In this document: positions 41,973 through 57,141 of the stretch, piece by piece | Layout of the letters: each line of letters opens with the position of its first letter | Numbering within the stretch: the stretch's first letter is position 1 | From: Eubacteriales bacterium | GTDB lineage: Bacteria; Bacillota; Clostridia; Oscillospirales; JAAYXM01 | Length of the DNA stretch: 64,000 bases | Reading direction: 5' to 3' | NCBI GenBank assembly: GCA_045595365.1 | Contig: JAZOAI010000033.1 | Location: 743-64,742 of the forward strand | Notes under the pieces: model-generated | What the model saw: only the letters and a program-made list of their open reading frames with translations | What the model was told of the DNA's origin: nothing | The model's database searches: none | Program-made: the position numbers and the translations under genes

Positions 41973-42506
41973 TTAGTCTTTATATTCGATTCCTGCGTTT
42001 ATCGCTTTGAGGTTTACCTCAAGGAGGTTTGCGCGCTTTGCGGAAACGACTTTTTTGAGTGAATCCTCAATATTATCGGTTCTCATTCCGCACTCCTTCA
42101 TAAGCTTGCCTGTGATAATCATATTGGCAAGAGTCGGAGCTTCCATCTCCTGCGCCATCTTTGTTGCAGGGATGTAGAAGACCTTTACATCATCACGAGC
42201 TACCTTGCGCTCAATAAGAGTAGAATCGACAAGGATGATGCCCCCCGGGACAACTGCATCCTCATACTTATCAAGCGAGGGAAGGTTCATTGCAACAAGA
42301 ACATCAGGGCTTGAAACTATCGGTGAGCCGACGGGGTCATCAGAGAGGATAACGCTGCAGTTTGCAGTTCCGCCGCGCATCTCCGGACCGTAAGACGGGA
42401 GCCAGCTGAGCTGTCTGCCCTCGAGAAGGCCTTTATATGCAAGAAACTTTCCTGCGAAAAGAATGCCCTGGCCGCCGAAGCCTGCCAAAAGAATTTGAGT
42501 TGTCAT
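41973..42506 (-). CDS. 2-oxoacid:ferredoxin oxidoreductase, gamma subunit
   Basis: [14 protein letters not shown]...[15 protein letters not shown] is the signature of POR/KOR/VOR gamma subunits. Confidence 0.8.
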
Positions 42507-42508
42507 AA

Positions 42509-43261
42509 TTATGCTTCCTCCTTCTCTGCGCTCTTGTCCTTATAAACTCCGAGCGGATAGTACGGAATCATATTGTCATCGACCCACTTGAGCGCATCGT
42601 TCGGTGTGAGCCCCCAGTTTGTTGGACAGGTGGAAACGACCTCGATAAGCGAGAAGCCCTTACCCTCTACCTGATTCTGGAATGCTTTGAGGATAGCCTT
42701 TCCTGCTGCCTTAACATTCTTAACGCTGTTGACTGCAACACGCTCGATATACTGCGGGCCGTCAAGCGTTGCGAGCATTTCGGAAACGCGAATCGGATAA
42801 CCTGCTGTGTTGACATCACGGCCGTACGGCGAGGTCTGTGTAACCTGGCCGGGAAGCGATGTCGGAGCCATCTGGCCTCCTGTCATACCGTAGATTGCGT
42901 TATTGACAAAGATGATTGTTATGTTTTCATTCCTTGCTGCGGCGTGGACAGTTTCTGCCATACCGATGGATGCAAGGTCGCCATCTCCCTGATATGTGAA
43001 GATTACATTCTCCGGAAACGCGCGTTTTAAGCCTGTTGCAACAGCGGGAGCGCGGCCGTGAGCCGCCTCGACCATATCGCATGAGAAATAATCATATGCC
43101 ATAACCGAGCATCCGACCGGAGCAACACCGATAGTTTTGCCCTCAACTCCGAGCTTATCTATTGCCTCTGCAACAAGGCGGTGAATAATACCGTGAGTGC
43201 AGCCCGGGCAGTAGTGAAGCGGTGCATCTGTAAGACTTTTCGGTTTTTCAAATACTACCAT
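42509..43261 (-). CDS. 2-oxoacid:ferredoxin oxidoreductase, beta (TPP-binding) subunit
   Basis: YCPGCTHGI, GDGD...IG, NNAIYGMTGGQ. Confidence 0.85.
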   Translation of the reverse strand: MVVFEKPKSLTDAPLHYCPGCTHGIIHRLVAEAIDKLGVEGKTIGVAPVGCSVMAYDYFSCDMVEAAHGRAPAVATGLKRAFPENVIFTYQGDGDLASIGMAETVHAAARNENITIIFVNNAIYGMTGGQMAPTSLPGQVTQTSPYGRDVNTAGYPIRVSEMLATLDGPQYIERVAVNSVKNVKAAGKAILKAFQNQVEGKGFSLIEVVSTCPTNWGLTPNDALKWVDDNMIPYYPLGVYKDKSAEKEEA

Positions 43262-44322
43262 TATTTGCTACCTCCCTTGACTTCCATAATTTTTGCAAGA
43301 ACTTCTTCCGGTGACGGAATCATACCGCCGACGCGGTTGCAGAGATATACCGGTTTTTTGCAATCTGTTGCAAGGCGGATATCCTCAATCATCTGACCCA
43401 TTGAAAGCTCAACGCTTATAAATGCCTTGACCTTATCGGCAGCTTCCGCAAGAGGCTTCTTCGGGAACGGCCATACTGTAATCGGGCGAATCATTCCGAC
43501 CTTTACGCCCTCCTTGCGAGCTGCAACGACTGCATTCTTCGCAACGCGGGCAGCGATGCCGAAAGCAACAACGCAGTATTCTGCATCGTCCATCATAAAG
43601 CTTTCATATCTTGCTTCATTCTCTTCAATCAGCTTATATCTCTCATATCTCTCGATATTCTTCTTCTCAAGCTCCTCGGGCTTTAAGTAGAGAGAGTTGA
43701 TGATGTTGTGTTCACGCTTGCAGCCGGTGCCTGTAACAGCCCAGTCCTTTTCTGATGAACCGTCATTCTCCTCGGGGAGAACAACAGGCTCCATCATCTG
43801 ACCCATGGTTCCGTCAGCAAGGAGCATTGCGGGCATACGGTATTTCTCCGCAAGCTCGAATGCAAGAGCTGTCATATCAGCCATTTCCTGAACGGATTCG
43901 GGAGTGAGAACTATTATGCGGTAGTCACCGTGGCCGCCGCCCTTTGTGGACTGGAAATAGTCCGACTGTGAAGGCTGAATTCCGCCAAGGCCCGGGCCTC
44001 CGCGCTGAACGTTTACGATAAGTGCGGGAAGGTCTGCACCTGCGATATAGGAGATACCCTCCTGCTTAAGTGAGATTCCGGGGCTTGAAGAGGATGTCAT
44101 AACACGCTTTCCCGTTCCCGCAACGCCATATACCATATTGATAGCGGAAATCTCGCTTTCTGCCTGGAGGAAGGTCCCTCCGATTTTCGGCATTTTCTTT
44201 GCCATATACGCCGCGACCTCTGTCTGCGGGGTTATAGGATATCCGAAGTAGTGGCGGCAGCCTGCACGGATAGCAGCTTCCGCAATAGCTTCGTTACCTT
44301 TCATTAAAACTTTTTCTGCCAT
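43261..44322 (-). CDS. 2-oxoacid:ferredoxin oxidoreductase, alpha subunit (VorB-like)
   Basis: MKGNEAIAEAAIRAGCRHYFGYPITPQTE..., 353 aa. Confidence 0.85.
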   Translation of the reverse strand: MAEKVLMKGNEAIAEAAIRAGCRHYFGYPITPQTEVAAYMAKKMPKIGGTFLQAESEISAINMVYGVAGTGKRVMTSSSSPGISLKQEGISYIAGADLPALIVNVQRGGPGLGGIQPSQSDYFQSTKGGGHGDYRIIVLTPESVQEMADMTALAFELAEKYRMPAMLLADGTMGQMMEPVVLPEENDGSSEKDWAVTGTGCKREHNIINSLYLKPEELEKKNIERYERYKLIEENEARYESFMMDDAEYCVVAFGIAARVAKNAVVAARKEGVKVGMIRPITVWPFPKKPLAEAADKVKAFISVELSMGQMIEDIRLATDCKKPVYLCNRVGGMIPSPEEVLAKIMEVKGGSK

Positions 44323-44335
44323 TTTACCTCACACC

Positions 44336-44542
44336 TCACTTTTCTACAGTAATTACACAGTCAGGGCACATTGTCGCGCAGAACGCACAACCAATGCACT
44401 TTTCCTGGTCTGTAATCTCTGCGGGAGAATGACCTTTTTTGTTGATTTTGTCTTTTGCAAGACGGATGATGCCCTTAGGGCAGGCTGTGACACAGAGACC
44501 GCAACCCTTACAGATGTCTGTGTCGAAGGTTACTTTTGCCAT
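44336..44542 (-). CDS. 2-oxoacid:ferredoxin oxidoreductase, delta subunit (2x[4Fe-4S] ferredoxin-like)
   Basis: Two CxxCxxCxxxCP motifs (CKGCGLCVTACP and CIGCAFCATMCP). Start at the ATG at 44542, 8 nt after AGAGGGG. Confidence 0.8.
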   Translation of the reverse strand: MAKVTFDTDICKGCGLCVTACPKGIIRLAKDKINKKGHSPAEITDQEKCIGCAFCATMCPDCVITVEK

Positions 44543-44559
44543 AAATAACACCCCTCTGT

Positions 44560-45228
44560 TTAAAATATTTTTTTCTGAAGCCGGAGAGGGAAAAATCTCC
44601 GGTTTTTATCCTTTTCGCATAAGCTCTCCATCGCCGTCGTCATAACAAGCGGAACGCCTGCAAGCTCTGATAACTCCTGCGCGAGGGCTTCTGTCTTTTC
44701 GATTGCTTCAATATCCGTTTCACTTCCGATATTGGAGTTGTTGACAATCCCCGTGAACGGAATTCCCGCAGCCGCTTCTATCTCGCGGAAAACCTCGTAT
44801 GCACTTTCTGCATCGCGAGTCAATGGGCGGAAGAAGTTTACGACAAACAGATTGTCAAAATCGTTTTCCTCAAGTATATACGGGCGATATCTCCCCAGCG
44901 CATAAGCTCCGCGGTCATCGCCGCCTATATCCATAACAACGCGGCAATCTCTGCGCTGAACAAGCCCATATACCTCCTGCGGAAGTGCCGGCAAATCAAC
45001 GCTCGTATTTGCAAACGGGAGTGCAACAACCTCGACTCCCGCCGCTTGGAGTTCTTCTAAGCTGTCCTTCGTGCGGAAGTATGGGTTTACCACGTCAATA
45101 TCAGCTATTGCAACCGCATCCCCCTGACTTTTCAGATAAAGCGCGAAGTTAACCGCGATATTCGTTTTTCCGCTGCCGTAGTGTCCGCAAAAAAGAGTTA
45201 TCCTCTTGTTTAAAGAATTACTGACCAA
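44560..45228 (-). CDS. P-loop NTPase of the MinD/ParA/CooC-like (SIMIBI) type
   Basis: A deviant Walker A motif, GHYGSGKTN, near the N-terminus, with DIGGD as a probable Walker B motif. TTG start overlapping the ilvE stop by 19 nt. Confidence 0.55.
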   Translation of the reverse strand: MVSNSLNKRITLFCGHYGSGKTNIAVNFALYLKSQGDAVAIADIDVVNPYFRTKDSLEELQAAGVEVVALPFANTSVDLPALPQEVYGLVQRRDCRVVMDIGGDDRGAYALGRYRPYILEENDFDNLFVVNFFRPLTRDAESAYEVFREIEAAAGIPFTGIVNNSNIGSETDIEAIEKTEALAQELSELAGVPLVMTTAMESLCEKDKNRRFFPLRLQKKIF

Positions 45229-46277
45229 TTGAACTTATCCTCGCATTCGCCCCACTGGATTCCTGTTATCGTGTCATAGAGTTTCTGGCTGACTTCGCCG
45301 ATTGTGTTGTTGTTTATGAGCATAACGTCATCCTTATAGCGAAGCTTGCCGACCGGAGAAATAACCGCAGCGGTTCCTGTTCCGAAGCACTCTTCGAGCT
45401 TGCCTGACTTCTGAGCATCAAGAAGCTCTTCAACGGAAATTTTTCTCTCCTCGACTTCATACCCCCAGGACTTGCAGACTTCGATTACGGAGTTTCTTGT
45501 AATACCCGGGAGGATGCTGCCGGAGAGCTCCGGGGTAACAATCTTGCCGGCAATCTTGAAGAAGATATTCATCGCGCCGACTTCTTCGATGTATTTTCTC
45601 TCAACACCGTCAAGCCAGAGAACCTGAGAATAGCCTTCATCGTGTGCCTTGACCTGAGCAGCTAAGCTTGCTGCGTAGTTTCCGCCTGTTTTTGCAAATC
45701 CCATACCGCCCTTGACAGCGCGGACATAGTCATCCTCAATCCAGATTCCGACAGGAGCAAGGCCACTTGCGTAATACGCGCCTGATGGTGAGAGGATTAT
45801 GATAAAGAGATATGTTTTTGACGGTGCAACACCGAGGAATTCGTCTGTCGCGATAATGAACGGGCGAATGTAGAGCGATGTACCTGGGGTAGTGGGAATC
45901 CAGTCCTCATCGACCTTGACAATAGCCTTGCAAGCCTCAACGAAGAGTTCTTCAGGAAGCTCAGGAATGCAGAGGCGCTTGTTTGTGGCGTTTGTGCGCT
46001 TTGCGTTCATATCGGGCCTGAAAAGGCGGGCTTTTCCGTCTTTTCCCCTGTATGCCTTAAGGCCTTCAAACATTTCCTGCCCATAGTGGAATACCATAGC
46101 GGAGGGGTCAAGGGAAAGCTTTTCATAAGGAACTATTCTTCCGTCATGCCAGCCCTTTCCTTCCGTGTAGTTCATTAAGAACATATGGTCGGTAAAGACC
46201 TTTCCGAAGCCGAGCTTTGACTCATCCTGCGGATGTGCCTTCGGAGTTGTTGTTTTTGTAACCGAAAAGTTATACAT
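45210..46277 (-). CDS. ilvE: Branched-chain-amino-acid aminotransferase
   Basis: FGKVFTDHMF, HYGQEMFEGLKAYR, TGGNYAASL and GTGTAAVISPV are typical of the 355-aa YbgE/YwaA-type IlvE. Confidence 0.9.
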   Translation of the reverse strand: MYNFSVTKTTTPKAHPQDESKLGFGKVFTDHMFLMNYTEGKGWHDGRIVPYEKLSLDPSAMVFHYGQEMFEGLKAYRGKDGKARLFRPDMNAKRTNATNKRLCIPELPEELFVEACKAIVKVDEDWIPTTPGTSLYIRPFIIATDEFLGVAPSKTYLFIIILSPSGAYYASGLAPVGIWIEDDYVRAVKGGMGFAKTGGNYAASLAAQVKAHDEGYSQVLWLDGVERKYIEEVGAMNIFFKIAGKIVTPELSGSILPGITRNSVIEVCKSWGYEVEERKISVEELLDAQKSGKLEECFGTGTAAVISPVGKLRYKDDVMLINNNTIGEVSQKLYDTITGIQWGECEDKFNWSVIL

Positions 46278-46318: not shown

Positions 46319-48607
46319 TTAAAGCTTGTTGCGCTGAATCTTTCCGCTTACCGTCTTCGGGAGACTCTCGCGGAAGACAACAAGACGCGGGTATTTATAT
46401 GGCGCGGTATGCTCTTTAACGTATGTCTGGATTTCCTTTTTGAGTTCCTCCGTCGGCTCTGTCCCCTTTGTGAGAACGATGCTTGCCTTAACTATCTGGC
46501 CGCGAACCTCGTCGGGAGCGGCGGAAACTCCGCACTCAAGAACATACGGAAGCTCCATAATAACGCTCTCAATTTCAAACGGGCCTATGCGATAGCCGGA
46601 GGATTTGATAACATCGTCAACACGGCCGACGTACCAATAGAAGCCGTCTTCATCGCGCCAGGCGGTATCGCCGGTGTGGTAGTAGCCGTCGTGGAGAACC
46701 TCAAGGGTTTTTTCCTCATCGCGGTAATAGCCTTTGAAGAGGCCGCAGGGATGCCCGTCTTTTACATTGATGACAATCTCGCCCGTCTCGCCAACTGCCA
46801 CCTCTTCGCCATTTTCGTTGATAAGCTCGACATTATATATGGGAGCCGGCTTACCCATAGAACCGATTTTGTGTGGCGCACCGACCATATTGCCTATAAT
46901 CATCGTGCTTTCTGTCTGCCCAAATCCCTCGATTATCTGAAGCCCTGTCGCCTTTTCAAACTGGCGGTAAACCTCAGGATTGAGAGCTTCGCCTGCCGTC
47001 GTCATATGCTTGACTGATGAGAAGTTGTATTTTGAAATATCTTCTTTGATCATCATCCGGAGCATTGTCGGAGGCGCGCAGAAGGTTGTTATATTATATT
47101 TCTCAAACATCGGAAGGATGTCTGATGCATCAAAGCGGTCAAAGTCGTAAACAAACACTGCTGCTTCGCAAAGCCACTGGCCGTAGAGTTTACCCCACAT
47201 CGACTTTGCCCAACCGGTTTCGGAGATTGTGAAATGAAGGCCGTCGGGGTCGACATTGTGCCAGTATTTCGCTGTATGGAAATGCCCGAGCGGATATTTG
47301 TGGCTGTGCGCCGCGATTTTCGGGTAGCCGGTAGTCCCTGATGTAAAGAACATAAGGAGAAGGTCATCTCCGCAGGGGGAATCTGCAGTCCGCTCAAAGT
47401 GAGAGCTAAAGAGCGTATACTCCTCGTCAAAGCATCTCCAACCGTCACGCTCACCGCCAACGATAATCTTGTTGAGAAGCTCGGGGCATGTTTTTGCCGC
47501 TTCATCTACCTGGTGAGCGGCATCTCCGTCTGCCGTGCAGATTACCGTGTTGACGCCTGCCGCCTGGAAGCGGTATTCAAAGTCGTGAACCTGCAGCTGA
47601 TTTGTAGCAGGGATTGCGATTGCGCCAAGCTTATTTAAACCTATCATCGCAAACCAGAACTGGTAATGACGCTTGAGGACCAGCATAACGCGGTCGCCCT
47701 TCTTGATTCCGAGAGACTTGAAGTAGTTCGCACATCTTGCAGATTCACGCTTTATATCCGCAAACGTAAAGCGGCGCTCCGTCTTGTTTATGTCAATATG
47801 TAGCATCGCAAGCTTTTCCGGCTCACGCTCGGCAAGCGCATCAACAAGGTCGAAGGCGAAGTTGAACCCGTCGGTGTTTTTGAACTTGATTGACGTCGGG
47901 GTTCCGTTTTCGTTTTCTTCGGTGTCGATATAGTTGCGGTAAATTCTCGTTTTTGTATCCTTCTTTACCTCGCGAACCTCGGAAATCGCCTTTGTCGGCG
48001 AAAGCTCAGGAATAGGCTCTCCGGAAGGATTGAGAACGATTGCGTAGAAAACACAATCCGCTCCGTTTGTCGCAATCATGCCGTGTGGCGTGTTACTGTC
48101 ATAGTATATGCTGTCACCGGGGCCGAGAATTTCGCGGTGGTCCCCTATCTGCACGAGCAGATGCCCCTCGACGATTATATCACACTCCTGGCCATCGTGA
48201 GAGGTGAGTTCAATATCAGACTCACTTATGCTATCGTCGTATGAAATTCTGACGTAAAGCGGCTCTGCGATTCGGTTCTGGAACGCATATGCTAGGTTAT
48301 AGTATGTCATCCCGTGAGCCTGGCCTATCTTCTGACCGAGACCTGACCGCGTAACCGTAAACGACTTGAGCGTCGGGCTCACGCCCTCAATAATGTCGGT
48401 AACATTGACGCGGAGAACTGTTGCACATCTGTAAATAAACGCAAAGTTTAAATCGCTCTCTCCCAGCTCGCAGCTGTTGTATTCCTCGACTGTCACTCCC
48501 GTAGCTGACGCCATTTCTTCGGGAGACAATCCCTCAATCTCGCGAAGCTCGCGTATGCGCGCCGCCATTTCTTTGATTTTGTAATCAAGCCCTGTCATTT
48601 TCGCCAT
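46319..48607 (-). CDS. XRE-HTH + cupin + AMP-forming acyl-CoA ligase fusion (paralog 1, behind the Val T-box)
   Basis: Residues ~10-75 form an HTH (IRELREIEGLSPEEMASATGVTVEEYNSCE). Residues ~120-190 form a cupin (DIIVEGHLLVQIGD...GDSIYYDSNTPHGM). The rest is an ANL adenylating enzyme (FFTSGTTGYPK, GFGQTE, YHTGD, SGKIQR). Confidence 0.8.
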   Translation of the reverse strand: MAKMTGLDYKIKEMAARIRELREIEGLSPEEMASATGVTVEEYNSCELGESDLNFAFIYRCATVLRVNVTDIIEGVSPTLKSFTVTRSGLGQKIGQAHGMTYYNLAYAFQNRIAEPLYVRISYDDSISESDIELTSHDGQECDIIVEGHLLVQIGDHREILGPGDSIYYDSNTPHGMIATNGADCVFYAIVLNPSGEPIPELSPTKAISEVREVKKDTKTRIYRNYIDTEENENGTPTSIKFKNTDGFNFAFDLVDALAEREPEKLAMLHIDINKTERRFTFADIKRESARCANYFKSLGIKKGDRVMLVLKRHYQFWFAMIGLNKLGAIAIPATNQLQVHDFEYRFQAAGVNTVICTADGDAAHQVDEAAKTCPELLNKIIVGGERDGWRCFDEEYTLFSSHFERTADSPCGDDLLLMFFTSGTTGYPKIAAHSHKYPLGHFHTAKYWHNVDPDGLHFTISETGWAKSMWGKLYGQWLCEAAVFVYDFDRFDASDILPMFEKYNITTFCAPPTMLRMMIKEDISKYNFSSVKHMTTAGEALNPEVYRQFEKATGLQIIEGFGQTESTMIIGNMVGAPHKIGSMGKPAPIYNVELINENGEEVAVGETGEIVINVKDGHPCGLFKGYYRDEEKTLEVLHDGYYHTGDTAWRDEDGFYWYVGRVDDVIKSSGYRIGPFEIESVIMELPYVLECGVSAAPDEVRGQIVKASIVLTKGTEPTEELKKEIQTYVKEHTAPYKYPRLVVFRESLPKTVSGKIQRNKL

Positions 48608-48636: not shown

Positions 48637-48922
48637 AAAAAACACTCGTCCCAAAGTTGATAATCCTTGAGACGAGTGAGATAAACAATACACCCGCGGT
48701 ACCACTCAAATTGTGCAAAAAATGCACCGCTCAGGCTCTACTAAGCCTTATGCCTTTACGCAGCAATCACGGAAAGGTTCTACTGACCGAAATGATTCGG
48801 ATTTCTTCCTCTCAGCTCAGAAGCTACAACCGCAAAGCACGTGCCAGATAGCTCACACCAACCGCTACCTCTCTGAAAGCCCGTTCTCCTTGCGCACTCT
48901 TCGTCAAAGCTTTTAATAATTT
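48637..48922 (-). promoter_or_regulatory. T-box leader, specifier read as GUA (Val)
   Basis: On the minus strand: K-turn and helix (GAAG/CUUC), AGAGAG bulge, distal loop GGUUGGUGUGA, specifier loop 3' side GUU-GUA-G (codon at 48827-48825), T-box AGTGGTACCGCGGG, and terminator CACTCGTCTCAA/TTGGGACGAGTG plus T6. Confidence 0.75.
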
Positions 48923-48928
48923 GTGTTT

Positions 48929-48957
48929 ATTATATATCAACTTTCAAGCTTTGTCAA
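48929..48957 (-). promoter_or_regulatory. Consensus sigma-A promoter for the Val T-box unit
   Basis: TTGACA (48957-48952), 17 nt, then TATAAT (48934-48929). Confidence 0.6.
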
Positions 48958-48981: not shown

Positions 48982-51249
48982 CTAAAGCTTGTTTCGCTGA
49001 ATCTTTCCGCTTATTGTTTTCGGAAGCTCGTCGCGGAATACGACAAGACGCGGATACTTATACGGCGCAGTGTGTTCCTTGACGTAGTTCTGGATTTCCT
49101 TCTTAAGCTCCTCTGTCGGCTCGGTTCCCTTTGTGAGAACAATGCTCGCCTTTACTATCTGCCCGCGAAGGTCATCCGGTTCTGCCGAAACTCCGCACTC
49201 AAGGACATACGGAAGCTCCATTATGACACTCTCGATTTCAAACGGGCCGATGCGATATCCCGAAGACTTGATAACATCGTCAATACGGCTTACATACCAG
49301 AAATATCCGTCTTCATCGCGCCAGGCCGTGTCACCCGTGTGATACATGCCGTAGCGCATACATTCTTCCATTTTTTCATCATCGTCAAGGTACTGCCTGA
49401 AGAGCCCGACAGGGGTATTCTTATCAAGCTTTACGACAATCTCTCCGACCTCGCCGTTTGCCACTGTGTTTCCGTCGGGGTCAACAATATCAATATCATA
49501 CTGCGGAGAAGCTTTTCCCATAGAGCCTATGCGCGGAGTTGTCCCGAAGAGGTTTGCTATGATGAGCGTAGTCTCCGTCTGACCAAACCCTTCCATAATC
49601 TTAAGCCCGGTTGCTTTTTCAAACTGCTTGTAAACCTCGGGGTTTAATGCTTCTCCGGCGGTTGTCATATGGTGGATTGAAGAAAGGTCGAATTTCGACA
49701 GGTCTTCTTTTATAAACATACGCAGCATTGTCGGAGGTGCGCAGAAGGTTGTGATGTTATACTTTGCAAACATCGGGAGAATGTCCGTTGCGGCAAAGCG
49801 GTCAAAGTCGTAAACAAACACAGCGCCCTCGCAGAGCCACTGGCCGTAGAGCTTGCCCCAGAGTGACTTTCCCCAGCCTGTGTCAGATATTGTGAAATGG
49901 AGCCCGTCACGCTCGCAGCAATGCCAGTATTTCGCCGTCACAAAGTGCCCGAGGGCATATGTGTGCTTGTGTTCAACCATCTTCGGATTTCCGGTTGTCC
50001 CTGATGAGAAGAACATAAGCGCAGCATCATCGCCGCACGAGGTGTCTTCGCATCTTGCAAAATTACTTGAAAAGCGGCCGTATTCGCTGTCAAAATCGTG
50101 CCAGCCGTCACGCTTGCCGCCAACGAGGATTTTCGTCGTAAGGCTCGGGCATCGCTCTGCCGCTCGCTCCGCCATCTCTGCAGCATAGTCATCCGCTGTG
50201 CAGATGATTGCAGAAACGTTCGCCGCGCTGAAGCGGTATTCAAAGTCGTGATCCTTAAGCTGATGAGTTGCAGGAATTGCAACCGCGCCGAGCTTATGAA
50301 GCGCGACCATTGCAAACCAGAACTGGTAGTGCCGTTTTAATACTATCATAACGCGGTCGCCGCGCTTTATTCCGAGTGATGCGAAGTAGTTTGCACATCT
50401 TGCCGACTCGCGCTTGATGTCCTCAAACGTAAAGCGGCGCTCGGTCATATTCTTATCCACATGGAGCATCGCAAGCTTCGTGGGAGCCTTTTCTGCAATA
50501 GCATCAACAACATCAAACCCGAAATTGAAGCTTTCGGTGTTTGTGAACTCAATGCTCTCCAAAACGCCCTCCGAGCTTTCCTTGCACTTTACAAACTTCT
50601 CGCAGGAGAGCTTTGTGGCAGGGCGAAGTGAAACCACGCTTTCGCGGATTTCTTCTTCTTTTACATCCTCGCCGGGAAGAACGACTGCACAGAAAACGCA
50701 ATCCTTGCCGTCGACCGCAATCATTCCGTGAGGGGTTGAGCTGTTATAGTAGATGCTGTCGCCCTCGTGAAGAACCTCAACATTTTTCCCAACCTGAACC
50801 TTAAGCGAACCGCTGATGACAATGTCAAACTCCTGGCCGCTGTGTTTTGTAAGGTGGATTGGCTTATTCTGCTGCTCCTCTGAATATTCATATCTTACCC
50901 AATAGGGTTCTGCAATCTTGTTTTTAAATTTGGGCGCAAGATTTGCAATCGAGATTCCCTCCTCCTTTGCAGTCTCCTGCCCTTTTCCCTTGCGGGTGAC
51001 CGTGTAGGAAGAAAGGTGGGCATCCCCTCCGCCGAGAAGCTCGATTATCTCAATCCCGAACGCAAGCGCGCATTTGTGAATAAATGTAAACGGCATATCT
51101 GCTGAGCCACTCTCATATGCCTTGTATTCATCCTCTGAAACTTCGCAGAGCTTTGCAAGCTCCGGGGCGCTCATTCCCATAATCTCCCGCATCTCGCGAA
51201 TTCGGGTCGCGACCTCCGTTAACTGCGTCATTGATTTTTCCAAAGTCAT
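48982..51249 (-). CDS. XRE-HTH + cupin + AMP-forming acyl-CoA ligase fusion (paralog 2, behind the Ile T-box)
   Basis: Same three-domain layout as 46319-48607 and alignable end to end. The C-terminal ~100 aa are almost identical (DVIKSSGYRIGPFEIESVIMELPYVLECGVSA...). Confidence 0.8.
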   Translation of the reverse strand: MTLEKSMTQLTEVATRIREMREIMGMSAPELAKLCEVSEDEYKAYESGSADMPFTFIHKCALAFGIEIIELLGGGDAHLSSYTVTRKGKGQETAKEEGISIANLAPKFKNKIAEPYWVRYEYSEEQQNKPIHLTKHSGQEFDIVISGSLKVQVGKNVEVLHEGDSIYYNSSTPHGMIAVDGKDCVFCAVVLPGEDVKEEEIRESVVSLRPATKLSCEKFVKCKESSEGVLESIEFTNTESFNFGFDVVDAIAEKAPTKLAMLHVDKNMTERRFTFEDIKRESARCANYFASLGIKRGDRVMIVLKRHYQFWFAMVALHKLGAVAIPATHQLKDHDFEYRFSAANVSAIICTADDYAAEMAERAAERCPSLTTKILVGGKRDGWHDFDSEYGRFSSNFARCEDTSCGDDAALMFFSSGTTGNPKMVEHKHTYALGHFVTAKYWHCCERDGLHFTISDTGWGKSLWGKLYGQWLCEGAVFVYDFDRFAATDILPMFAKYNITTFCAPPTMLRMFIKEDLSKFDLSSIHHMTTAGEALNPEVYKQFEKATGLKIMEGFGQTETTLIIANLFGTTPRIGSMGKASPQYDIDIVDPDGNTVANGEVGEIVVKLDKNTPVGLFRQYLDDDEKMEECMRYGMYHTGDTAWRDEDGYFWYVSRIDDVIKSSGYRIGPFEIESVIMELPYVLECGVSAEPDDLRGQIVKASIVLTKGTEPTEELKKEIQNYVKEHTAPYKYPRLVVFRDELPKTISGKIQRNKL

Positions 51250-51279: not shown

Positions 51280-51558
51280 AATAAAAACTCGCCTCAAAGG
51301 TTTCTTTGAGACGAGTTCGATAACAAAACCGATACCCGCGGTACCACTCAAATTGTGCAAGAAAATGCACCACTCAGGCTCCAGCAAGCCTTATGCCTTT
51401 ACGCAGCAATCACGGAAGGCGCCTACTCACCGCAAGGGTTTCGGACCTCCAGCTCAGAAGTGATGGGAGAAAACAGTTCACTATCGGGATTTCACCGCCC
51501 CCGACTCTCTGAAAAGCTTCGTTGTTTTTCCGTCTTCGTCACAGCTTTTATTTATTTT
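51280..51558 (-). promoter_or_regulatory. T-box leader, specifier read as AUC (Ile)
   Basis: Same K-turn and GAAG/CUUC helix as the Val leader. Specifier loop 3' side is CCC-AUC-A (codon at 51464-51462). It also has the AGAGAG bulge, distal loop GGCGGUGAAAU, T-box AGTGGTACCGCGGG, and terminator AACTCGTCTCAAAG/CTTTGAGGCGAGTT plus a T run. Confidence 0.75.
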
Positions 51559-51564
51559 TTTATA

Positions 51565-51593
51565 ATTTTACACCCGCAAAAAGCTTTTGTCAA
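51565..51593 (-). promoter_or_regulatory. Sigma-A promoter for the Ile T-box unit
   Basis: TTGACA, 17 nt, then TAAAAT, starting 16 nt after the stop of the upstream gene. Confidence 0.55.
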
Positions 51594-51608: not shown

Positions 51609-54065
51609 TTATTCAAGCCCTAAAAGCTTCGCCGCTTCCTCGCGCATTTTATACTTGAGGATTTTCCCCGCTGCGTTCATCGGGAAGCTCTTTACGAACA
51701 TAAAATATCTCGGAACCTTATGGCGCGCTATGTGAGCGTTTCCAAACTCGCGCATCTCATTCTCGTCAGCTTCCTCGCCGTCGTGGAGGATAATCCACGC
51801 ACAGCACTCCTCACCGTATCTCTTGTCGGGAACGCCGACAACCTGAACGTCGCGAACCTTCGGGTTTGTGAGGTAGAATTCCTCTATCTCGCGTGGATAC
51901 AGGTTTTCACCGCCGCGGATAATCATATCCTTGAGGCGGCCTGTGACCTTGTAATATCCGTCAGGAGTTCTGCAGCAGATGTCACCCGAATGGAGCCAGC
52001 CGTCGGCATCTATCGTCTGTGCGGTGGCGCGGGGCATTTTGTAGTACCCCTTCATTATGTTAAATCCACGCGCTACAAATTCGCCGCTCTCCCCATCCGG
52101 AAGCTCTTCTCCCGTTTCGGGGTCAATAATCTTGCACTCAACTCCCGGGAACGCGCTTCCGACAGTTTCAACTCGGTGGTCGATATCCTCATTGACCTCG
52201 CCCATAGTGCAGCCCGGGGATGCCTCAGTCTGGCCGTAAACGCTTATAATCTCCTTCATATTCATCTCATCTGCAGCGCGGCGCATAAGATCTGCAGGGC
52301 AGTTTGCGCCTGCCATTATGCCGGTGCGGATATGAGAGAAGTCTGTTTTTTGGAAATCCGGATGATTGAACATCGCAATAAACATCGTCGGGACTCCATT
52401 GAAGCAGGTTATTCTCTCGTCATTAACACAGGCGAGTGAGGATGCCGGAGAAAAGTATGGCATCGGAAAGAGCGTTCCGCCGTGAGTCATCGTAGATGTC
52501 ATGGAAAGAACCATCCCGAAGCAGTGGAACATCGGAACCTGAATCATCATACGGTCGGCAGTTGAGAGATCCATACGGTCGCCTATCGTTTTGCCGTTAT
52601 TGACTATATTTCTGTGAGTGAGCATAACCCCCTTCGGGAACCCTGTTGTTCCTGAGGTGTATTGCATATTGCAGACATCGTCAGGCTCAACGAGCGATGC
52701 GCGGCGGCGCACCTCTTCCTTCGGAACATCAGCCGCGCGGGCAAGCATATCCTCCCAGGTGAGGCAGCCTGCCATTTCAAAGCCGACTGTTACTACATTC
52801 CTGAGAAACGGAAGGTTTTTTGCATAAAGCGGTTTTCCCGGCTGCAGGGTAGCAAGCTCAGGGCAAAGCTCCTCTATAATCTCGCGATAGTTTGTATCCT
52901 TGCAGTCTTCAATCATAACGAGCGTGTGGGTGTCTGACTGGCGAAGCAAGTATTCAATCTCGTGGATTTTATATGCCGTATTGACAGTTACAAGAACTGC
53001 TCCGATTTTTGTTGTTGCCCAGAAGGTTATAAACCATTGGGGAACATTCGTCGCCCATATGGCAACGTGGTCTCCGGCTTTTACGCCAAGGGAAATGAGA
53101 GCCGCTGCCGCCTCATCAACATCGCGGCGAAATTCAGAATACGTTCTTGTGTAATCAAGTGTTGTATACTTAAAAGCATACTGGTCGGGGTACCTCTCTG
53201 CCATAGTGTCGAGAACCTGAGAGAAGGTCTTGTCTATTACCTCGTACTTTTCCCAGACGTATGTCCCCGTTTTTGCTCTGTTATAGAACACATTCTCGCG
53301 GGAATTCTTTATTCCGCCGAGATTCTCAATGTAATTTGAAAAATGCGTCAGAACAATGTCTGCATCGTCAATTTCATCGTTCCAGGCAACAGAGATAAAG
53401 CCGTCATAGTTAAGCGACGAAAGCGCATCTATAACCTCTCCCACAGGGAGGTCTCCCTCTCCGATGAGGACATTTGTTTCACCCTTGCGGTCACCGAGTC
53501 TTACATACTTAATATATGCGCCAAGGTTTGTGATTGTATCCTCCGCACTTTCCCGTGCGCAGAAATATGTTTCTCTGACATCCCACGCCGCGCCGAGAGC
53601 TGCACTTGAGAAGAATTTTATTATGTCAATTACATTTTCCGTGTGCGAAAGATAGTCTGACGTTGAGAGAAGAATTTGCACATCTGAGCCTTCTGCCCGC
53701 TCAATTGCAGGAGAAAGCCTTTTTTCGAGAAGCCTAAAATCCGTTTCCTTTTCAATATGGACAATCACGCTCGGGATACCTGCACTAAGTGCCATATCAA
53801 CATATCTTTTTACAGCTTCTCCGTCAGCCTCGTCTGAATCAAGAGCATACGGATATATAAGCGACGACACCTCAAGGGCGCGGTTTAAAAGCTTGCGTTT
53901 TGAATCAGAAACCTTGCCGCTTCTGAGAATGCTGTCAGGATGATTCATCCTTTCTTTTTCGGCATCGTATATCTCAAAGCCTGAAAATCCATAGTCATAA
54001 GCATACTTGCAGACATCGAGAAAGGTGGCACACCTGATGTTTTTTGTCGAAAAGGTGAATTTCAT
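51609..54065 (-). CDS. Fusion protein: xylose-isomerase-like TIM-barrel domain + AMP-forming acyl-CoA ligase
   Basis: The N-terminal ~270 aa resemble sugar-phosphate isomerase/epimerase (AP_endonuc_2) TIM barrels (GFSGFEIY, VIVHIEK, LPVGEVIDALSSLNYDGFISV). The C-terminal ~550 aa form an ANL ligase (YTSGTTGFPKGVMLTH, YGQTE, WLHSGD, RGGENLYP, GKILK). The ATG at 54065 lies 6 nt after GAGGAGG and 1 nt after the upstream stop. Confidence 0.75.
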   Translation of the reverse strand: MKFTFSTKNIRCATFLDVCKYAYDYGFSGFEIYDAEKERMNHPDSILRSGKVSDSKRKLLNRALEVSSLIYPYALDSDEADGEAVKRYVDMALSAGIPSVIVHIEKETDFRLLEKRLSPAIERAEGSDVQILLSTSDYLSHTENVIDIIKFFSSAALGAAWDVRETYFCARESAEDTITNLGAYIKYVRLGDRKGETNVLIGEGDLPVGEVIDALSSLNYDGFISVAWNDEIDDADIVLTHFSNYIENLGGIKNSRENVFYNRAKTGTYVWEKYEVIDKTFSQVLDTMAERYPDQYAFKYTTLDYTRTYSEFRRDVDEAAAALISLGVKAGDHVAIWATNVPQWFITFWATTKIGAVLVTVNTAYKIHEIEYLLRQSDTHTLVMIEDCKDTNYREIIEELCPELATLQPGKPLYAKNLPFLRNVVTVGFEMAGCLTWEDMLARAADVPKEEVRRRASLVEPDDVCNMQYTSGTTGFPKGVMLTHRNIVNNGKTIGDRMDLSTADRMMIQVPMFHCFGMVLSMTSTMTHGGTLFPMPYFSPASSLACVNDERITCFNGVPTMFIAMFNHPDFQKTDFSHIRTGIMAGANCPADLMRRAADEMNMKEIISVYGQTEASPGCTMGEVNEDIDHRVETVGSAFPGVECKIIDPETGEELPDGESGEFVARGFNIMKGYYKMPRATAQTIDADGWLHSGDICCRTPDGYYKVTGRLKDMIIRGGENLYPREIEEFYLTNPKVRDVQVVGVPDKRYGEECCAWIILHDGEEADENEMREFGNAHIARHKVPRYFMFVKSFPMNAAGKILKYKMREEAAKLLGLE

Positions 54066-54066
54066 A

Positions 54067-55458
54067 TTAATCCTCCTCAAAAACAATCTTGTTGAGTGCA
54101 TTGATATATGCACGGATGCTTGCCGCTACAATGTCAGTGGAAATTCCGTTGCCTGAATAGAGCTTCCCGTGGCTGCGCAGACGGACAAGAGCAGATCCGA
54201 GAGCTTCCTTGCCCTCTGTAACCGCCTGAATCTGGAAGTCGTCAAGCTCGTAGTGGTAACCCACGCTCTGCTCAATAGCGCGGAAAACAGAGTCAATCGG
54301 CCCGTCACCCGTGCTGACTCCGTGAAGGAGCTTATCGCCCGTGCGGAGAGTTACCTGCGACATAGAGTCTGCGAGGTTTCCGCAAGTTGTTGTGTAACTC
54401 TCGAGATGATATTTTGACGGCGCCTGCATAGCAAAGCTTGCAATAAGAGCTTCAAGCTCTTTTGCTCCGACACTTCCCTTTTTCTCACAAACCTGAGAAA
54501 GCGCGGAATGAACATTCCCGCAATCCTCATCTGTCAGGTCATAGCCGAGGATCCGCGCAGCTTCTGCCACCTGGGTGATTGTGCTGTCTGTTGTGAGGAA
54601 AATCGAGCTTTTTGAACCGTCTTCTGATGTTTCTTCAGTCTTAACGCTGTGGTTGATTTTCTTAAGCAACGCTTCCGTATCCGAATGAACCTGAGTGTTT
54701 TTAAGCCCTGTGAAGATGCCAAAGCTCTCCCCTCTTTTGCTGATCGCATCGGAAAGCTCGCCCGTTATGAGGGTTGATGAACCGCAGAGGGCGCACTTAA
54801 GCCCCGAAGCACCTGCTTCGATCGCTGAAATCGCTGTTGCGACCGCCATTCTGAGGTTGTTTGAAACAGAAACACAGACCGAAACCGAAACCTTACCCGA
54901 AATCCTGCCCACAAGCTCTGCCATTTCTGCAGGGAGGAAAACTCCCGCATCATCACAGAGAGTTACGCTTCCTGCACCGGCGCGCTCAGCTTCTAAAACG
55001 CAATTTTCGAGAAACTCGAGGTTTGCGCGGGTTGCATCAAGCGCAACAAACTCAACATCGCTGCATAATGCTTTTGCATTTGCTACAAGCTCTGAAATTT
55101 TAGTGAGCATTTTTTCAGCCTTGATGTGGTATGTATACTCCATCGAAACAGTCGATGTGGGAAGCGCGACCTGAAGCCGCGGGTGTGCAGCGTCTTTTAT
55201 GCACTCCCACGCCTGTTCCGCTTCGGCTTCTGAAAAACCGACAGGAATTGCAACGATGCAATCCTTGAGGGTTGAGGAAATTGTTTTATATATAATGGTG
55301 TCCTCGCGAAGCTTTTTAATCGGAGCGAGCTCAACAACGTCAACTCCGCAAGCCTCCGCGCAAGCCGCAATAGCTGTTTTTTCACGGAAAAGAAGATTTG
55401 CCTCGCGCTCGTTTGCAAGGTTTTTGAGAGTAATGTCTGCAATAGTGATTTTTTTCAT
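54067..55458 (-). CDS. LeuA/CimA-like protein with a degenerate catalytic barrel and a conserved C-terminal LeuA regulatory (dimerisation) domain
   Basis: The C-terminus (GDGPIDSVFRAI...QAVTEGKEALGSALVRL...GNGISTDIVAASIRAYINALNKI) matches the LeuA allosteric domain. In the N-terminal barrel, DITLKNLANE replaces DTTLRDGEQ and VSVSNNLRMAV replaces HxHNDxGxAxAN. ATG at 55458, 8 nt after AAAGGAG. Confidence 0.7.
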   Translation of the reverse strand: MKKITIADITLKNLANEREANLLFREKTAIAACAEACGVDVVELAPIKKLREDTIIYKTISSTLKDCIVAIPVGFSEAEAEQAWECIKDAAHPRLQVALPTSTVSMEYTYHIKAEKMLTKISELVANAKALCSDVEFVALDATRANLEFLENCVLEAERAGAGSVTLCDDAGVFLPAEMAELVGRISGKVSVSVCVSVSNNLRMAVATAISAIEAGASGLKCALCGSSTLITGELSDAISKRGESFGIFTGLKNTQVHSDTEALLKKINHSVKTEETSEDGSKSSIFLTTDSTITQVAEAARILGYDLTDEDCGNVHSALSQVCEKKGSVGAKELEALIASFAMQAPSKYHLESYTTTCGNLADSMSQVTLRTGDKLLHGVSTGDGPIDSVFRAIEQSVGYHYELDDFQIQAVTEGKEALGSALVRLRSHGKLYSGNGISTDIVAASIRAYINALNKIVFEED

Positions 55459-55499: not shown

Positions 55500-55785
55500 A
55501 ACAAAAAACGCCTTCGCCTCATTGTTGCTTCAAAGAGACGAAAGCGTTAAATTTAAAATTTAACTTTCCGCGGTACCACTCTTTTTCATCCGTTTCGGAT
55601 GCCCTTAGATGCCAGCACATCTTAACTCTGTTACGGGAGTGCCCGTCTGCCCCTACAATTTGAAGTTCACGGCAGCCGCTCCGCGGTGAGTTCTGCAAGT
55701 CTTTTCCAATGCCTTGCACCAACCGGCATCTCTCTTCAGATAAAAGAATTTTGCATACTATTCCGCATCACTGCGTTTTTATTTG
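55500..55785 (-). promoter_or_regulatory. T-box leader, specifier CUC (Leu)
   Basis: A canonical Stem I: K-turn GUGAUG/CGGA, 5' AAUAGUA, AGAGAG bulge, distal loop GGUUGGUGCAA, and specifier loop GAA-CUC-A (codon at 55690-55688). It also has T-box AGAGTGGTACCGCGG and a 14-bp terminator AACGCTTTCGTCTC/GAGGCGAAGGCGTT plus T6. Confidence 0.85.
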
Positions 55786-55791
55786 GTAAAC

Positions 55792-55820
55792 ATTTTATCA
55801 TATAGCTTCTCTTTTGTCAA
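55792..55820 (-). promoter_or_regulatory. Sigma-A promoter (extended -10) for the Leu T-box unit
   Basis: TTGACA, 17 nt, then TAAAAT, with TGA immediately upstream of the -10 element. Confidence 0.55.
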
Positions 55821-55822
55821 GA

Positions 55823-56275
55823 TTATTTTTTCATACTTTGTATTTTCAGGCGCAGGGTTTCTTCAAACTTACTATCCTGAGATTTTTCTCTTTTTGGTGC
55901 GCCGCGAAGCCGACCTCCTGCGTTTCTGATTTTCTTTGCGGTATGCCGCGCAAGGAGTAGCGCATCTATGTTAACTTCCGTATACTCAAGCCCATCCTGA
56001 TTGATGACACACGCACCGCGCGATAGCGCCATTGATGCAAGCCCGTAGTCCTGCGTTATAACAATATCTCCCTGCCTTGCAAAATTTACAAGGCAAAAAT
56101 CTGCGCTGTCGGCACCTTTTGGGACTATATGAGTCTCAGCACCCTCACGGTTAAACTCATGCGAGCTGTCGCAAAAAATATGGCACTCTGCATTCTCTTC
56201 GCGCGAAACTTTCAGGCATATATTGACAACGGGGCAACCGTCTGCATCTATAAGAATCCTCATTTTAGCGCTCAT
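55823..56275 (-). CDS. YaiI/YqxD-family protein (UPF0178/DUF188)
   Basis: MRILIDADGCPV...ITQDYGLA is typical of the family. The start could be the ATG at 56263. Confidence 0.7.
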   Translation of the reverse strand: MSAKMRILIDADGCPVVNICLKVSREENAECHIFCDSSHEFNREGAETHIVPKGADSADFCLVNFARQGDIVITQDYGLASMALSRGACVINQDGLEYTEVNIDALLLARHTAKKIRNAGGRLRGAPKREKSQDSKFEETLRLKIQSMKK

Positions 56276-56280
56276 TAACT

Positions 56281-57141
56281 TTAAAATGTCACGGTGTGGG
56301 TAAGCGTTTCGCGCTCACCCTTTTTCAATGTGCGGATTCTGTATTTCTTTGAAAAATCATCGACGCGCTTCCACGAAAGGTCAGGCGCGCCTGCCCACGG
56401 TTCTATGCACACATACTCAGCTTTTGGCTCTCTCCACACAAGAAGCGTATCAAAGCCCGGGAAAGCCACGTGAACAAAGCTTCCGTCGCGGTCGTCGCGC
56501 AGAGCAATTCCGCGAGATTTTATATCGAAGAAAATAAGCGCATCAACGGCAAAGAATTCTTCCTTCAATTTAAGCTCGCGCGTGTCTTCAAAACACGGCA
56601 AAGGTTTTTCTGAGATTCCTGCCTCAGGCAGAACCTCATACCTCATAAGCGTTTCTTTTTCATCAAGCACAAGGCTGTAATTCTCGATCGCGCCATCTAT
56701 CGCAAAACCTTCATGAGAGCCCGCAGAATAGTACATATTCCCGTCTGTCTTGTTGTCCGCGGTAAAATCAACCACGAGCTTTCTGCCGCAGACGGTGTAT
56801 GTCACACGGAATTCAAAATCAAACGGATACTGCTTTCGTGTTTCGGCGTTTGACTTCAAAAGAAAGGTCACTCTGTCCTCGCCTTTATCTTCAACATCAA
56901 ACTCCATTTTGCTTGCAAATCCGTGCATATCCATTGAGTATTCCTTACCATTGAAGGTGTACTTTCCGTCTTCGAGGAAGCTGACTATAGGAAAGAGAAT
57001 CGGAGACTTATCTTCCCATATTTCCGGGTCTCCGCACCAGATATATTCCTTGCCTGCGGCATCTTTTACGGAATCAATCTCCGCACCTTTTGTTTTTATG
57101 GCAACAGAAAGCTCATCACTCTTTATTGTTATTACAGACAT
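56281..57141 (-). CDS. Aldose 1-epimerase family protein (LacX-like)
   Basis: ILFPIV, HGFA, and a beta-sandwich-type sequence of ~286 aa. Confidence 0.7.
   Translation of the reverse strand: MSVITIKSDELSVAIKTKGAEIDSVKDAAGKEYIWCGDPEIWEDKSPILFPIVSFLEDGKYTFNGKEYSMDMHGFASKMEFDVEDKGEDRVTFLLKSNAETRKQYPFDFEFRVTYTVCGRKLVVDFTADNKTDGNMYYSAGSHEGFAIDGAIENYSLVLDEKETLMRYEVLPEAGISEKPLPCFEDTRELKLKEEFFAVDALIFFDIKSRGIALRDDRDGSFVHVAFPGFDTLLVWREPKAEYVCIEPWAGAPDLSWKRVDDFSKKYRIRTLKKGERETLTHTVTF

Follow-up and report, generated by a model that had tools for sequence, protein, structure and literature searches.

What is the role of a protein that is built like 2-isopropylmalate synthase (IPMS, LeuA), lacks the catalytic motifs of that enzyme, keeps its leucine-regulatory domain, and is encoded directly ahead of an acyl-CoA ligase? 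The question is raised by an open reading frame (ORF) at positions 54067..55458 (- strand) of a 64,000-nucleotide stretch of contig JAZOAI010000033.1 from an Eubacteriales bacterium (assembly GCA_045595365.1), hereafter the window. The ORF encodes 463 amino acids, which we refer to as the LeuA-like protein; it starts with an ATG at 55458, with GAAAGGAG just 5' of this codon, and ends with a TAA at 54067-54069. The gene that follows (51609..54065, - strand) encodes an 818-residue fusion of a xylose-isomerase-like TIM barrel (approximately residues 1-250) and an AMP-forming acyl-CoA ligase (approximately residues 276-818), referred to here as the TIM-ligase.

We used domain searches, alignments, structure models, and a survey of related loci to evaluate this gene pair. 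The LeuA-like product would be a catalytically dead descendant of IPMS in which the barrel would remain as a scaffold and the regulatory domain, by binding leucine, as a sensor. That it is not a synthase can be held with high confidence from the alignments, and that it works with the ligase is probable. The full model, in which it is a non-catalytic leucine-sensing partner of an isovalerate-activating ligase, has in our estimate about an even chance of being correct.

Catalytic residues, fold and selection in the LeuA-like protein

Residues 4-226 of the LeuA-like protein match the Pfam HMGL-like family (PF00682; 90 bits, E 2e-25) and residues 332-458 match LeuA_dimer (PF08502; 107 bits, E 1e-30), while the scores against the LeuA equivalog models of NCBIfam fall far below their cut-offs (NF002086, the best, 250.9 bits vs 532; TIGR00973, 222 vs 599). 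The protein is therefore a relative of LeuA, though an atypical one. Its AlphaFold model has a mean pLDDT of 88.8, with values >90 over most of the barrel, and contains an eight-stranded barrel, helical subdomain II, and the beta-beta-beta-alpha repeat in the regulatory domain. The linker residues 271-281, at the former place of subdomain I, are disordered in the model (pLDDT <50). The top matches in the Protein Data Bank (PDB) found by Foldseek were the Mycobacterium tuberculosis LeuA structures (3HPS, 3FIG, 1SR9; E ~1e-21), and superposition of the modelled barrel on Listeria monocytogenes LeuA (3ewb) gave an rmsd of 1.8 A and a TM score of 0.91. A first-pass annotation of this DNA, made from the sequence, had described LeuA-type homology along the protein, and the two Pfam matches and the LeuA structures among the best PDB matches bear this out. 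Relatives of the protein are named in databases either as 'hypothetical protein' or as 'alpha-isopropylmalate synthase regulatory domain-containing protein'.

The catalytic machinery was evaluated by aligning the LeuA-like protein with the solved LeuAs 3ewb and 3rmj, E. coli LeuA, and seven LeuA-length sequences, two of which (P0249 and P0253) are themselves atypical in their motifs. The DTTLRDGEQ motif reads DITLKNLANE, which places K12 at the catalytic Arg and N13 at the metal-binding Asp. The H-x-H-N-D motif reads S197-V-S199-N-N, so that both metal His residues are Ser, and the Glu of EDAxR is L140. The GIGERAGN motif is missing by way of a four-residue deletion (G226-SST), and the accessory subdomain I, including HxSGIHQDG, is absent, which shows as a ~40-residue gap in the alignment with E. 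coli LeuA and the other LeuAs. These alignments to characterised LeuAs agree with the first-pass annotation, which had reported the motifs as gone (DITLKNLANE, VSVSNNL for HxH, no recognisable GxGERxGN) and had proposed such an alignment as a check: Arg, Asp, and His are replaced (K12, N13, S197, S199) and GERAGN is deleted. On the same alignments, the loss of subdomain I is an additional change beyond those it had listed.

The same losses extend across the family. Among 28 sampled members, none has His at either metal-His position, two keep the metal Asp, six keep the catalytic Arg, and six keep the EDAxR Glu; all 28 lack both GERAGN and subdomain I through deletion, and there is free variation at the sites that correspond to the LeuA active site. 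Residues that are shared with true LeuA and look structural or second-shell (D8, K27, S102, D141, R144, G161, D169, P176) are retained. The accessory domain of IPMS, which contains subdomain I, is essential for catalysis (PMC9860122). Overall, five of the defining LeuA features examined are lacking (the metal ligands, the catalytic Arg and Glu, GxGERxGN, subdomain I, and a score above the equivalog cut-offs), and the barrel fold and subdomain II/regulatory domain are present. The protein is, as judged from these comparisons, a LeuA homologue that should not be filed as a 2-isopropylmalate synthase.

Two of the comparison sequences deserve mention for their own sake. P0253 (L085, 2005..3516), a full-length LeuA homologue of 503 amino acids encoded behind a T-box, keeps GIGERAGN but reads DSTLCEGERS and HSQND at the other catalytic motifs and has lost HxSGIHQDG; it may be partway through degeneration, or it may be a non-canonical LeuA of another kind. 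P0249, which has partly odd motifs, was considered as an intermediate and set aside, as it sits in an ordinary leu operon beside an aconitase-family gene.

An exhaustive search of 1.8 billion cluster representatives identified ~100 full-length clusters (at 50% identity) of the LeuA-like family, 453-497 residues in length and reaching down to 27% identity, all of which score above the first canonical-length LeuA in the search ranking. The family comes from gut and rumen Clostridia. Conservation and dN/dS were calculated for 81 close relatives of the LeuA-like protein. The mean top-residue frequency was 0.78 in the degenerate (beta/alpha)8 barrel (residues 1 to ~250; 54709..55458, - strand), ~0.67-0.78 in the two segments of the linker, and 0.90 in the allosteric/dimerisation domain (residues 332-463; 54070..54465, - strand), with median dN/dS values of 0.10, 0.07, and 0.03, respectively. 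Every part of the protein is thus under purifying selection, and the regulatory domain is the most constrained. Because homology to an enzyme is found together with loss of the catalytic residues, dN/dS of 0.03-0.10, and a family depth to 27% identity, the protein is, on sequence criteria, a pseudoenzyme: a homologue of an enzyme that has lost the residues for catalysis and is kept by selection. The earlier proposal of a pseudoenzyme is strongly supported by the residue losses across the 28 sampled members, the deletion of subdomain I, and purifying selection on the fold.

Features consistent with a leucine site are conserved, by homology, in the regulatory domain. The effector loop G384-D-G386-P-I-D389 is invariant in the family, G421 aligns with G462 of E. 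coli LeuA in a column that is likewise invariant, and a STDI..A..AY..A.NK motif is conserved. These observations, together with the PF08502 match and the low dN/dS, uphold the earlier description of the C-terminal LeuA domain as well conserved. leuA(G462D) is a feedback-dysregulated allele with which leucine feedback has been removed in E. coli (PMC6345581), the leucine site has been located in the regulatory domains of IPMS (PMC9860122), and a PF08502 domain is functional alone as an isoleucine sensor (PMC13381585). When the regulatory domain was searched as a single sequence against the PDB, nothing relevant was found. A profile of the family's C-terminal region matched the Leptospira interrogans citramalate synthase (CimA) domain 3F6G (E 8e-8) and paired the GDGPID loop with the GDGGYDA of this isoleucine-binding domain. 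By its sequence, the effector loop of the LeuA-like protein is of the LeuA type.

Pairing with the TIM-ligase and the leucine-responsive leader

The LeuA-like gene and the ligase gene are tightly joined. The TAA of the former is followed by 1 nt and then by the ATG of the latter at 54065, and the Shine-Dalgarno sequence of the ligase gene, GAGGAGG (54072..54078, - strand), lies inside the last LeuA-like codons (E-E-D). We surveyed 86 related loci and compared 80 LeuA-like/ligase junctions. The TIM-ligase gene is directly 3' of the LeuA-like gene in every locus whose contig continues, the stop-to-start gap is 0-6 nt in 78 of the 80 junctions, and almost every junction has GAGGAGG within the last LeuA-like codons. 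LeuA-like members of only 34%, 35%, and 27% identity show the pairing too. No triple fusion (LeuA-like, TIM, and ligase) and no stand-alone ligase TIM domain was found among 109 hits; the TIM-only hits look truncated, since all are <=341 amino acids and most are on contigs of a few kb. A search for RNA evidence of co-transcription found the sequence in gut-metagenome DNA runs only.

The related loci come mostly from metagenome-assembled genomes of Oscillospiraceae, Ructibacterium, Acutalibacteraceae, and Monoglobaceae, many of them from the guts of goat, sheep, deer, yak, and buffalo. Two of these loci, L054 and L055 (JAFUKG010000032.1), have mirror-image coordinates on a 256,226-bp contig (32699+223528 = 50066+206161 = length+1). 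This contig is probably an assembly artefact, an inverted duplicate of the hairpin type, and the two should be counted once.

The linkage of the LeuA-like gene to the ligase gene is well supported, and it is probable that the two products work together. Of the earlier proposal that the protein is a regulatory partner of the downstream enzyme, the coupling (TAA-1 nt-ATG, with the ribosome-binding site within the last LeuA-like codons) was found as described and the partnership is backed by genomic context (adjacency and 0-6-nt gaps, down to 27% identity), while the leucine-sensing part stands as a proposal that is weighed in the next section.

The ligase part of the TIM-ligase appears competent for catalysis. 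Reading of the translation by eye found the core motifs of adenylate-forming enzymes intact, including the C-terminal Lys in AAGK, and this part is 94.5% conserved among 67 orthologues. The domain best fits the PRK12583-like subfamily (676 bits), a subfamily other than that of MbcS, the short branched-chain acyl-CoA synthetase of Staphylococcus aureus. A link of this subfamily to B. subtilis YngI was considered, had no support in the literature search, and was dropped.

The N-terminal barrel of the ligase (53316..54065, - strand) gave a model with a pLDDT of 89.7 that resembles UlaE, AsbF, and ketose 3-epimerases (TM ~0.7-0.76). Canonical metal ligands are visible in distant fused relatives (ET, WD..H, HVHxxD, E[W/C]). 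The core family reads WN/DVRxT, YVRLGD, and (V/A)AWN at the metal-ligand motifs, with Y187/R189/G191 and A227, and with N162 in most orthologues and D162 in the window protein; in the latter ET also reads ST, with S134 in place of Glu. From these replacements, the barrel looks like a second degenerate barrel of the same system. As both barrels lack their canonical residues, an active ligase would thus be flanked by two barrels apparently without chemistry of their own.

The LeuA-like gene was also correctly placed behind a leucine T-box by the first-pass annotation. The leader (55531..55780, - strand; core AGAGUGGUACCGCG) matches Rfam RF00230 with 126 bits against a gathering score of 93 (E 3e-28), and its specifier loop reads GAA-CUC-A, with the Leu codon CUC at 55688-55690. 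A putative sigma-70-like promoter (TTGACA-17-TAAAAT with TG; 55792..55820, - strand) was recognised by consensus match (11/12). The terminator hairpin (55503..55546, - strand), read by eye, has a 12-bp stem (CGCUUUCGUCUC/GAGGCGAAGGCG) followed by U6; it was unlisted by the hairpin scan because its 14-nt loop is longer than the scan allows. Directly upstream of the Leu module, genes for a DUF188 (YaiI/YqxD) protein (~8 loci) and an aldose 1-epimerase (3 loci) recur, and they occupy 55823..57141 (- strand) in the window; they have no evident connection with it.

The leucine-specific leader recurs in related loci. T-box leaders upstream of the LeuA-like gene were confirmed with Rfam in 18 of the 27 related loci searched, and a T-box core was found by pattern search, which missed the cores of some leaders, in 72 of 80. 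Specifiers were read from leader alignments: CUC occupies the position in 66 of 71 aligned leaders and CUG in three. Eight loci lack the T-box (L007, L010, L012, L014, L070, L056, L057, L024). Seven of the eight have a promoter, a leader ORF of ~34-42 codons, and a terminator just 5' of the LeuA-like gene; for L024, the end of the contig leaves only the leader core and terminator visible. The leader peptide has a conserved Ile/Leu-rich core, ILLINAIIILL...NSA(I/F)CRV, and the leader region of L007 (7740..7975) folds at -67.5 kcal/mol (z = -6). The combination of an Ile/Leu-rich leader ORF and a terminator resembles a leader-peptide attenuator responding to Ile/Leu, an unusual device for Clostridia, and its arrangement points to a second, independent sensor of branched-chain amino-acid limitation.

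The proposed route and the alternatives

Two further T-box modules lie 3' of the TIM-ligase gene on the same strand. The first has a T-box leader with the Ile specifier AUC (51304..51551; 79 bits, E 9e-17) preceded by a near-consensus promoter (51565-51593) and ending in a terminator identified by the hairpin scan (51285-51318). It is followed by a gene for a fusion of an XRE-type helix-turn-helix (HTH), a cupin, and an MbcS-like acyl-CoA ligase (48982..51249), the proposed 2-methylbutyrate-CoA ligase. The second has a T-box leader with the Val specifier GUA (48665..48916; 87 bits, E 8e-19), a near-consensus promoter (48929-48957), a terminator (48643-48678; hairpin scan), and a second HTH-cupin-ligase fusion of the MbcS-like type (46319..48607), the proposed isobutyrate-CoA ligase. 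Both T-boxes were found by a relaxed Rfam search and fall below the gathering score of 93, so default Rfam annotation would miss them. Orthologous leaders keep the AUC and GUA triplets and differ in the bases on either side. The best NCBIfam model for both ligases is S. aureus MbcS, at 442-444 bits vs an equivalog cut-off of 850. Beyond four loci with close orthologues, homologues of ~60% identity occur near the LeuA-like/TIM-ligase pair in ~14 loci. Each of these fusions combines an enzyme with DNA-binding and ligand-binding parts in a single protein.

Genes for the remaining steps follow, also on the - strand: a class IV (branched-chain) aminotransferase (45210..46277), a CbiA/ParA-like P-loop protein (44560..45228), and a four-subunit 2-oxoacid:ferredoxin oxidoreductase (41973..44551) with delta (2x[4Fe-4S]; 44336..44551), alpha (43261..44322), beta (42509..43261), and gamma (41973..42506) subunits. 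The aminotransferase, P-loop, and oxidoreductase genes are found in the same stretch in ~15 other loci, and directly 3' of the LeuA-like/TIM-ligase pair in ~9 of these. The P-loop gene lies between the aminotransferase and oxidoreductase delta genes wherever both neighbours were detected, and is present even in L082, whose LeuA-like protein is 34% identical; its product may be a maturation or assembly factor of the oxidoreductase. The remainder of the window contains housekeeping genes only.

With Leu, Ile, and Val specifiers before the ligase genes, the ligases are switched on by a lack of charged tRNA-Leu, tRNA-Ile, and tRNA-Val, respectively. As read from their sequences, the ligases, oxidoreductase, and aminotransferase make up the gene set expected for a reductive-carboxylation route from isovalerate, 2-methylbutyrate, and isobutyrate to leucine, isoleucine, and valine: an acyl-CoA-forming enzyme, the oxidoreductase, and an aminotransferase are co-encoded under control by amino-acid limitation. 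Leucine synthesis from isovalerate by carboxylation and amination is documented in the rumen (PMC7356843).

In the mechanism that we propose, the LeuA-like protein would be made in fixed proportion with the TIM-ligase and would most likely be bound to it. The TIM-ligase would convert isovalerate to isovaleryl-CoA, the nearby oxidoreductase would convert isovaleryl-CoA to 2-oxoisocaproate by reductive carboxylation, and the class IV aminotransferase would convert 2-oxoisocaproate to leucine. Two levels of control are envisaged: uncharged tRNA-Leu would turn the operon on through the T-box, and free leucine on the LeuA-derived domain would throttle the ligase, the committed ATP-consuming step. 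Three observations fit a leucine-sensing role: the GDGPID loop is retained, a Gly aligns with G462 of E. coli LeuA, and the operon is under Leu-specific control. Extended to the whole locus, the three ligases and three T-boxes could be the genetic basis of isoacid use by rumen and gut Clostridia, with a separate end-product sensor for each ligase (for Leu the LeuA domain, for Ile and Val the HTH-cupin modules) and the LeuA-derived pseudoenzyme serving as the leucine-sensing allosteric subunit of the isovalerate-CoA ligase. We advance this wider interpretation tentatively and consider it somewhat less probable than the leucine-sensing model for the single gene pair.

Several points weigh against the leucine-sensing model. 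Complex formation, leucine binding, and an inhibitory effect on the ligase are inferred from sequence and gene context, and the substrate of the TIM-ligase solely from its T-box and neighbouring genes. The barrel may bind something, since it is under purifying selection and close relatives conserve residues at LeuA substrate-face positions (K12, R51-E52-D53, S102-T103, M106-E107-Y108, D141-R144, D169); the ligand could be a small molecule or a partner protein, and a pure sensor needs no ligand-binding barrel. Subdomain I is part of the allosteric signal path of true IPMS, and the M. tuberculosis enzyme has its allostery residues His379 and Tyr410 there (PMC9860122). With this subdomain deleted, any signalling must take a different route, which may involve contacts of the regulatory domain with the ligase or its TIM barrel. 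The leaders also include exceptions. The specifier position reads CCC, a Pro codon, in L002 (~1250..1494) and L030 (~2586..2832), and two loci (L082, L084) carry neither a T-box nor a leader peptide. One of the CCC leaders belongs to the closest relative (78% identity) and could reflect a sequencing error, drift, or changed specificity.

The alternative that survives best, though we consider it unlikely, is that the LeuA-like protein is an obligate but non-regulatory subunit. In this case the dead barrel, perhaps together with the TIM barrel of the ligase, would be a scaffold or substrate handler and the regulatory domain would serve for dimerisation only; in one variant the barrel might bind isovalerate, 2-oxoisocaproate, or an acyl-CoA and hand it over to the oxidoreductase. 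The barrel dN/dS of 0.10 and the conserved substrate-face positions are consistent with such a role, as are the residues shared with true LeuA (D8, S102, D141, R144, D169) and the organisation of LeuA as a domain-swapped dimer (PMC9860122). The absence of canonical metal ligands from the ligase TIM barrel as well suggests that two barrels are kept for structure or binding. On the other hand, the regulatory domain, including its effector loop, is ~3x more constrained than the barrel, which dimerisation alone hardly explains, and no family-specific barrel position is invariant across the wider family.

It is a good deal less probable that the protein is still an enzyme, with metal-independent or other chemistry in a remodelled barrel acting before or after the ligase. 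Purifying selection over the whole protein and the retention of D141, R144, and D169 could be cited for this, and a multi-step reaction could account for the constant pairing of the protein with two further domains of catalytic type. Against it, the family varies freely at the sites that correspond to the LeuA active site and no alternative invariant polar set is found in the barrel; subdomain I, held in the accessory domain that IPMS needs for catalysis (PMC9860122), is missing; and the pathway is complete with ligase, oxidoreductase, and aminotransferase, so that no extra step is needed.

A catabolic locus is very improbable. On this reading leucine would be fermented to isovalerate by way of 2-oxoisocaproate and isovaleryl-CoA, and the leucine detected by the LeuA-like protein would be a signal of substrate. 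Aminotransferases and 2-oxoacid:ferredoxin oxidoreductases are reversible enzymes, and the gene set could in principle run oxidatively. However, AMP-forming ligases act toward acyl-CoA formation and conserve no ATP, and the T-boxes and the Ile/Leu leader peptide activate the genes at amino-acid scarcity, the opposite of the catabolic need. We favour the biosynthetic direction over leucine fermentation because of the AMP-forming ligases and this starvation-induced control. A decaying leuA relic without function, which the lost catalytic motifs might suggest, is effectively refuted by the intact frame over ~100 clusters, dN/dS of 0.03-0.10, the conserved ligase junction, and the confident model.

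Isoacid use and comparison with known systems

That rumen bacteria require branched short-chain acids and turn them into branched-chain amino acids has been known since the 1960s. In our literature search, the activating enzymes of these acids and their control were not found assigned to genes. The search likewise returned no paper on a catalytically dead LeuA homologue or on T-box control of branched-chain acyl-CoA ligases, and none on the LeuA-like protein or the three-T-box ligase arrangement. The locus offers a concrete gene assignment for isoacid activation, with three ligases that are each marked by the specifier codon of their own T-box. If the interpretation is right, it would provide the long-sought genetic basis for isovalerate, 2-methylbutyrate, and isobutyrate as amino-acid precursors in rumen and gut Clostridia. 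It would also add an unusual pseudoenzyme, in which an enzyme of the de novo route has apparently been stripped of catalysis and reused as an end-product sensor of a salvage route. Practical interest would extend to isoacid feed supplements for ruminants, metabolic models of gut Clostridia, and natural leucine-sensor modules.

Pseudoenzymes as regulatory subunits are already known; a LeuA-derived one tied to an acyl-CoA ligase of a salvage pathway would be a new example among them. HisZ is an inactive paralogue of histidyl-tRNA synthetase that acts as the histidine-sensing regulatory subunit of HisG, the short-form ATP phosphoribosyltransferase. Like the proposed role of the LeuA-like protein, it is a case of a pseudoenzyme from an amino-acid-binding enzyme reused as a feedback sensor of a committed biosynthetic enzyme. 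The folds and the pathway are different, and the HisZ-HisG complex is experimental whereas a complex of the LeuA-like protein with its ligase is inferred. IlvH and IlvN of acetolactate synthase are also separate small subunits with a branched-chain effector site that confer feedback inhibition on a catalytic partner, and IlvH has been used as a valine sensor (PMC13381585). They differ from the LeuA-like protein in having an ACT-type fold that is not derived from an enzyme, and their partner is a thiamine-diphosphate enzyme and not an adenylate-forming ligase.

The regulatory domain of CimA (L. interrogans LiCMS; 3F6G, 3F6H) has the same fold as that of the LeuA-like protein, and such a domain works in isolation as an amino-acid sensor, the CimA domain responding to isoleucine (PMC13381585). 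CimA itself is catalytically active, and its loop reads GDGGYDA where the LeuA-like protein has the LeuA-type GDGPIDS. The closest system remains LeuA itself (E. coli LeuA; Neisseria meningitidis, 3RMJ; M. tuberculosis, 1SR9 and 3FIG), with which the LeuA-like protein shares the HMGL-like barrel, helical subdomain II, and the C-terminal PF08502 domain; the GxGP(I/V/L)D effector loop is present, as is a Gly in alignment with E. coli G462. Its gene stands behind a Leu T-box, as do many leuA genes of Firmicutes, and the proposed two-level control by T-box and leucine would mirror the dual control of true LeuA. Unlike LeuA, the LeuA-like protein is without the catalytic Arg, the Asp/His/His metal site, GERAGN, and subdomain I, is ~50 residues shorter, and is encoded outside a leuABCD operon and always paired with an acyl-CoA ligase. 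For the HTH-cupin-ligases of the Ile and Val modules, the best model is S. aureus MbcS (PMC10026030, PMC11167679), and the reaction proposed for these ligases is activation of isobutyrate and 2-methylbutyrate. In contrast to the ligases of this locus, MbcS feeds fatty-acid synthesis and has no HTH-cupin module, T-box, or LeuA-like partner.

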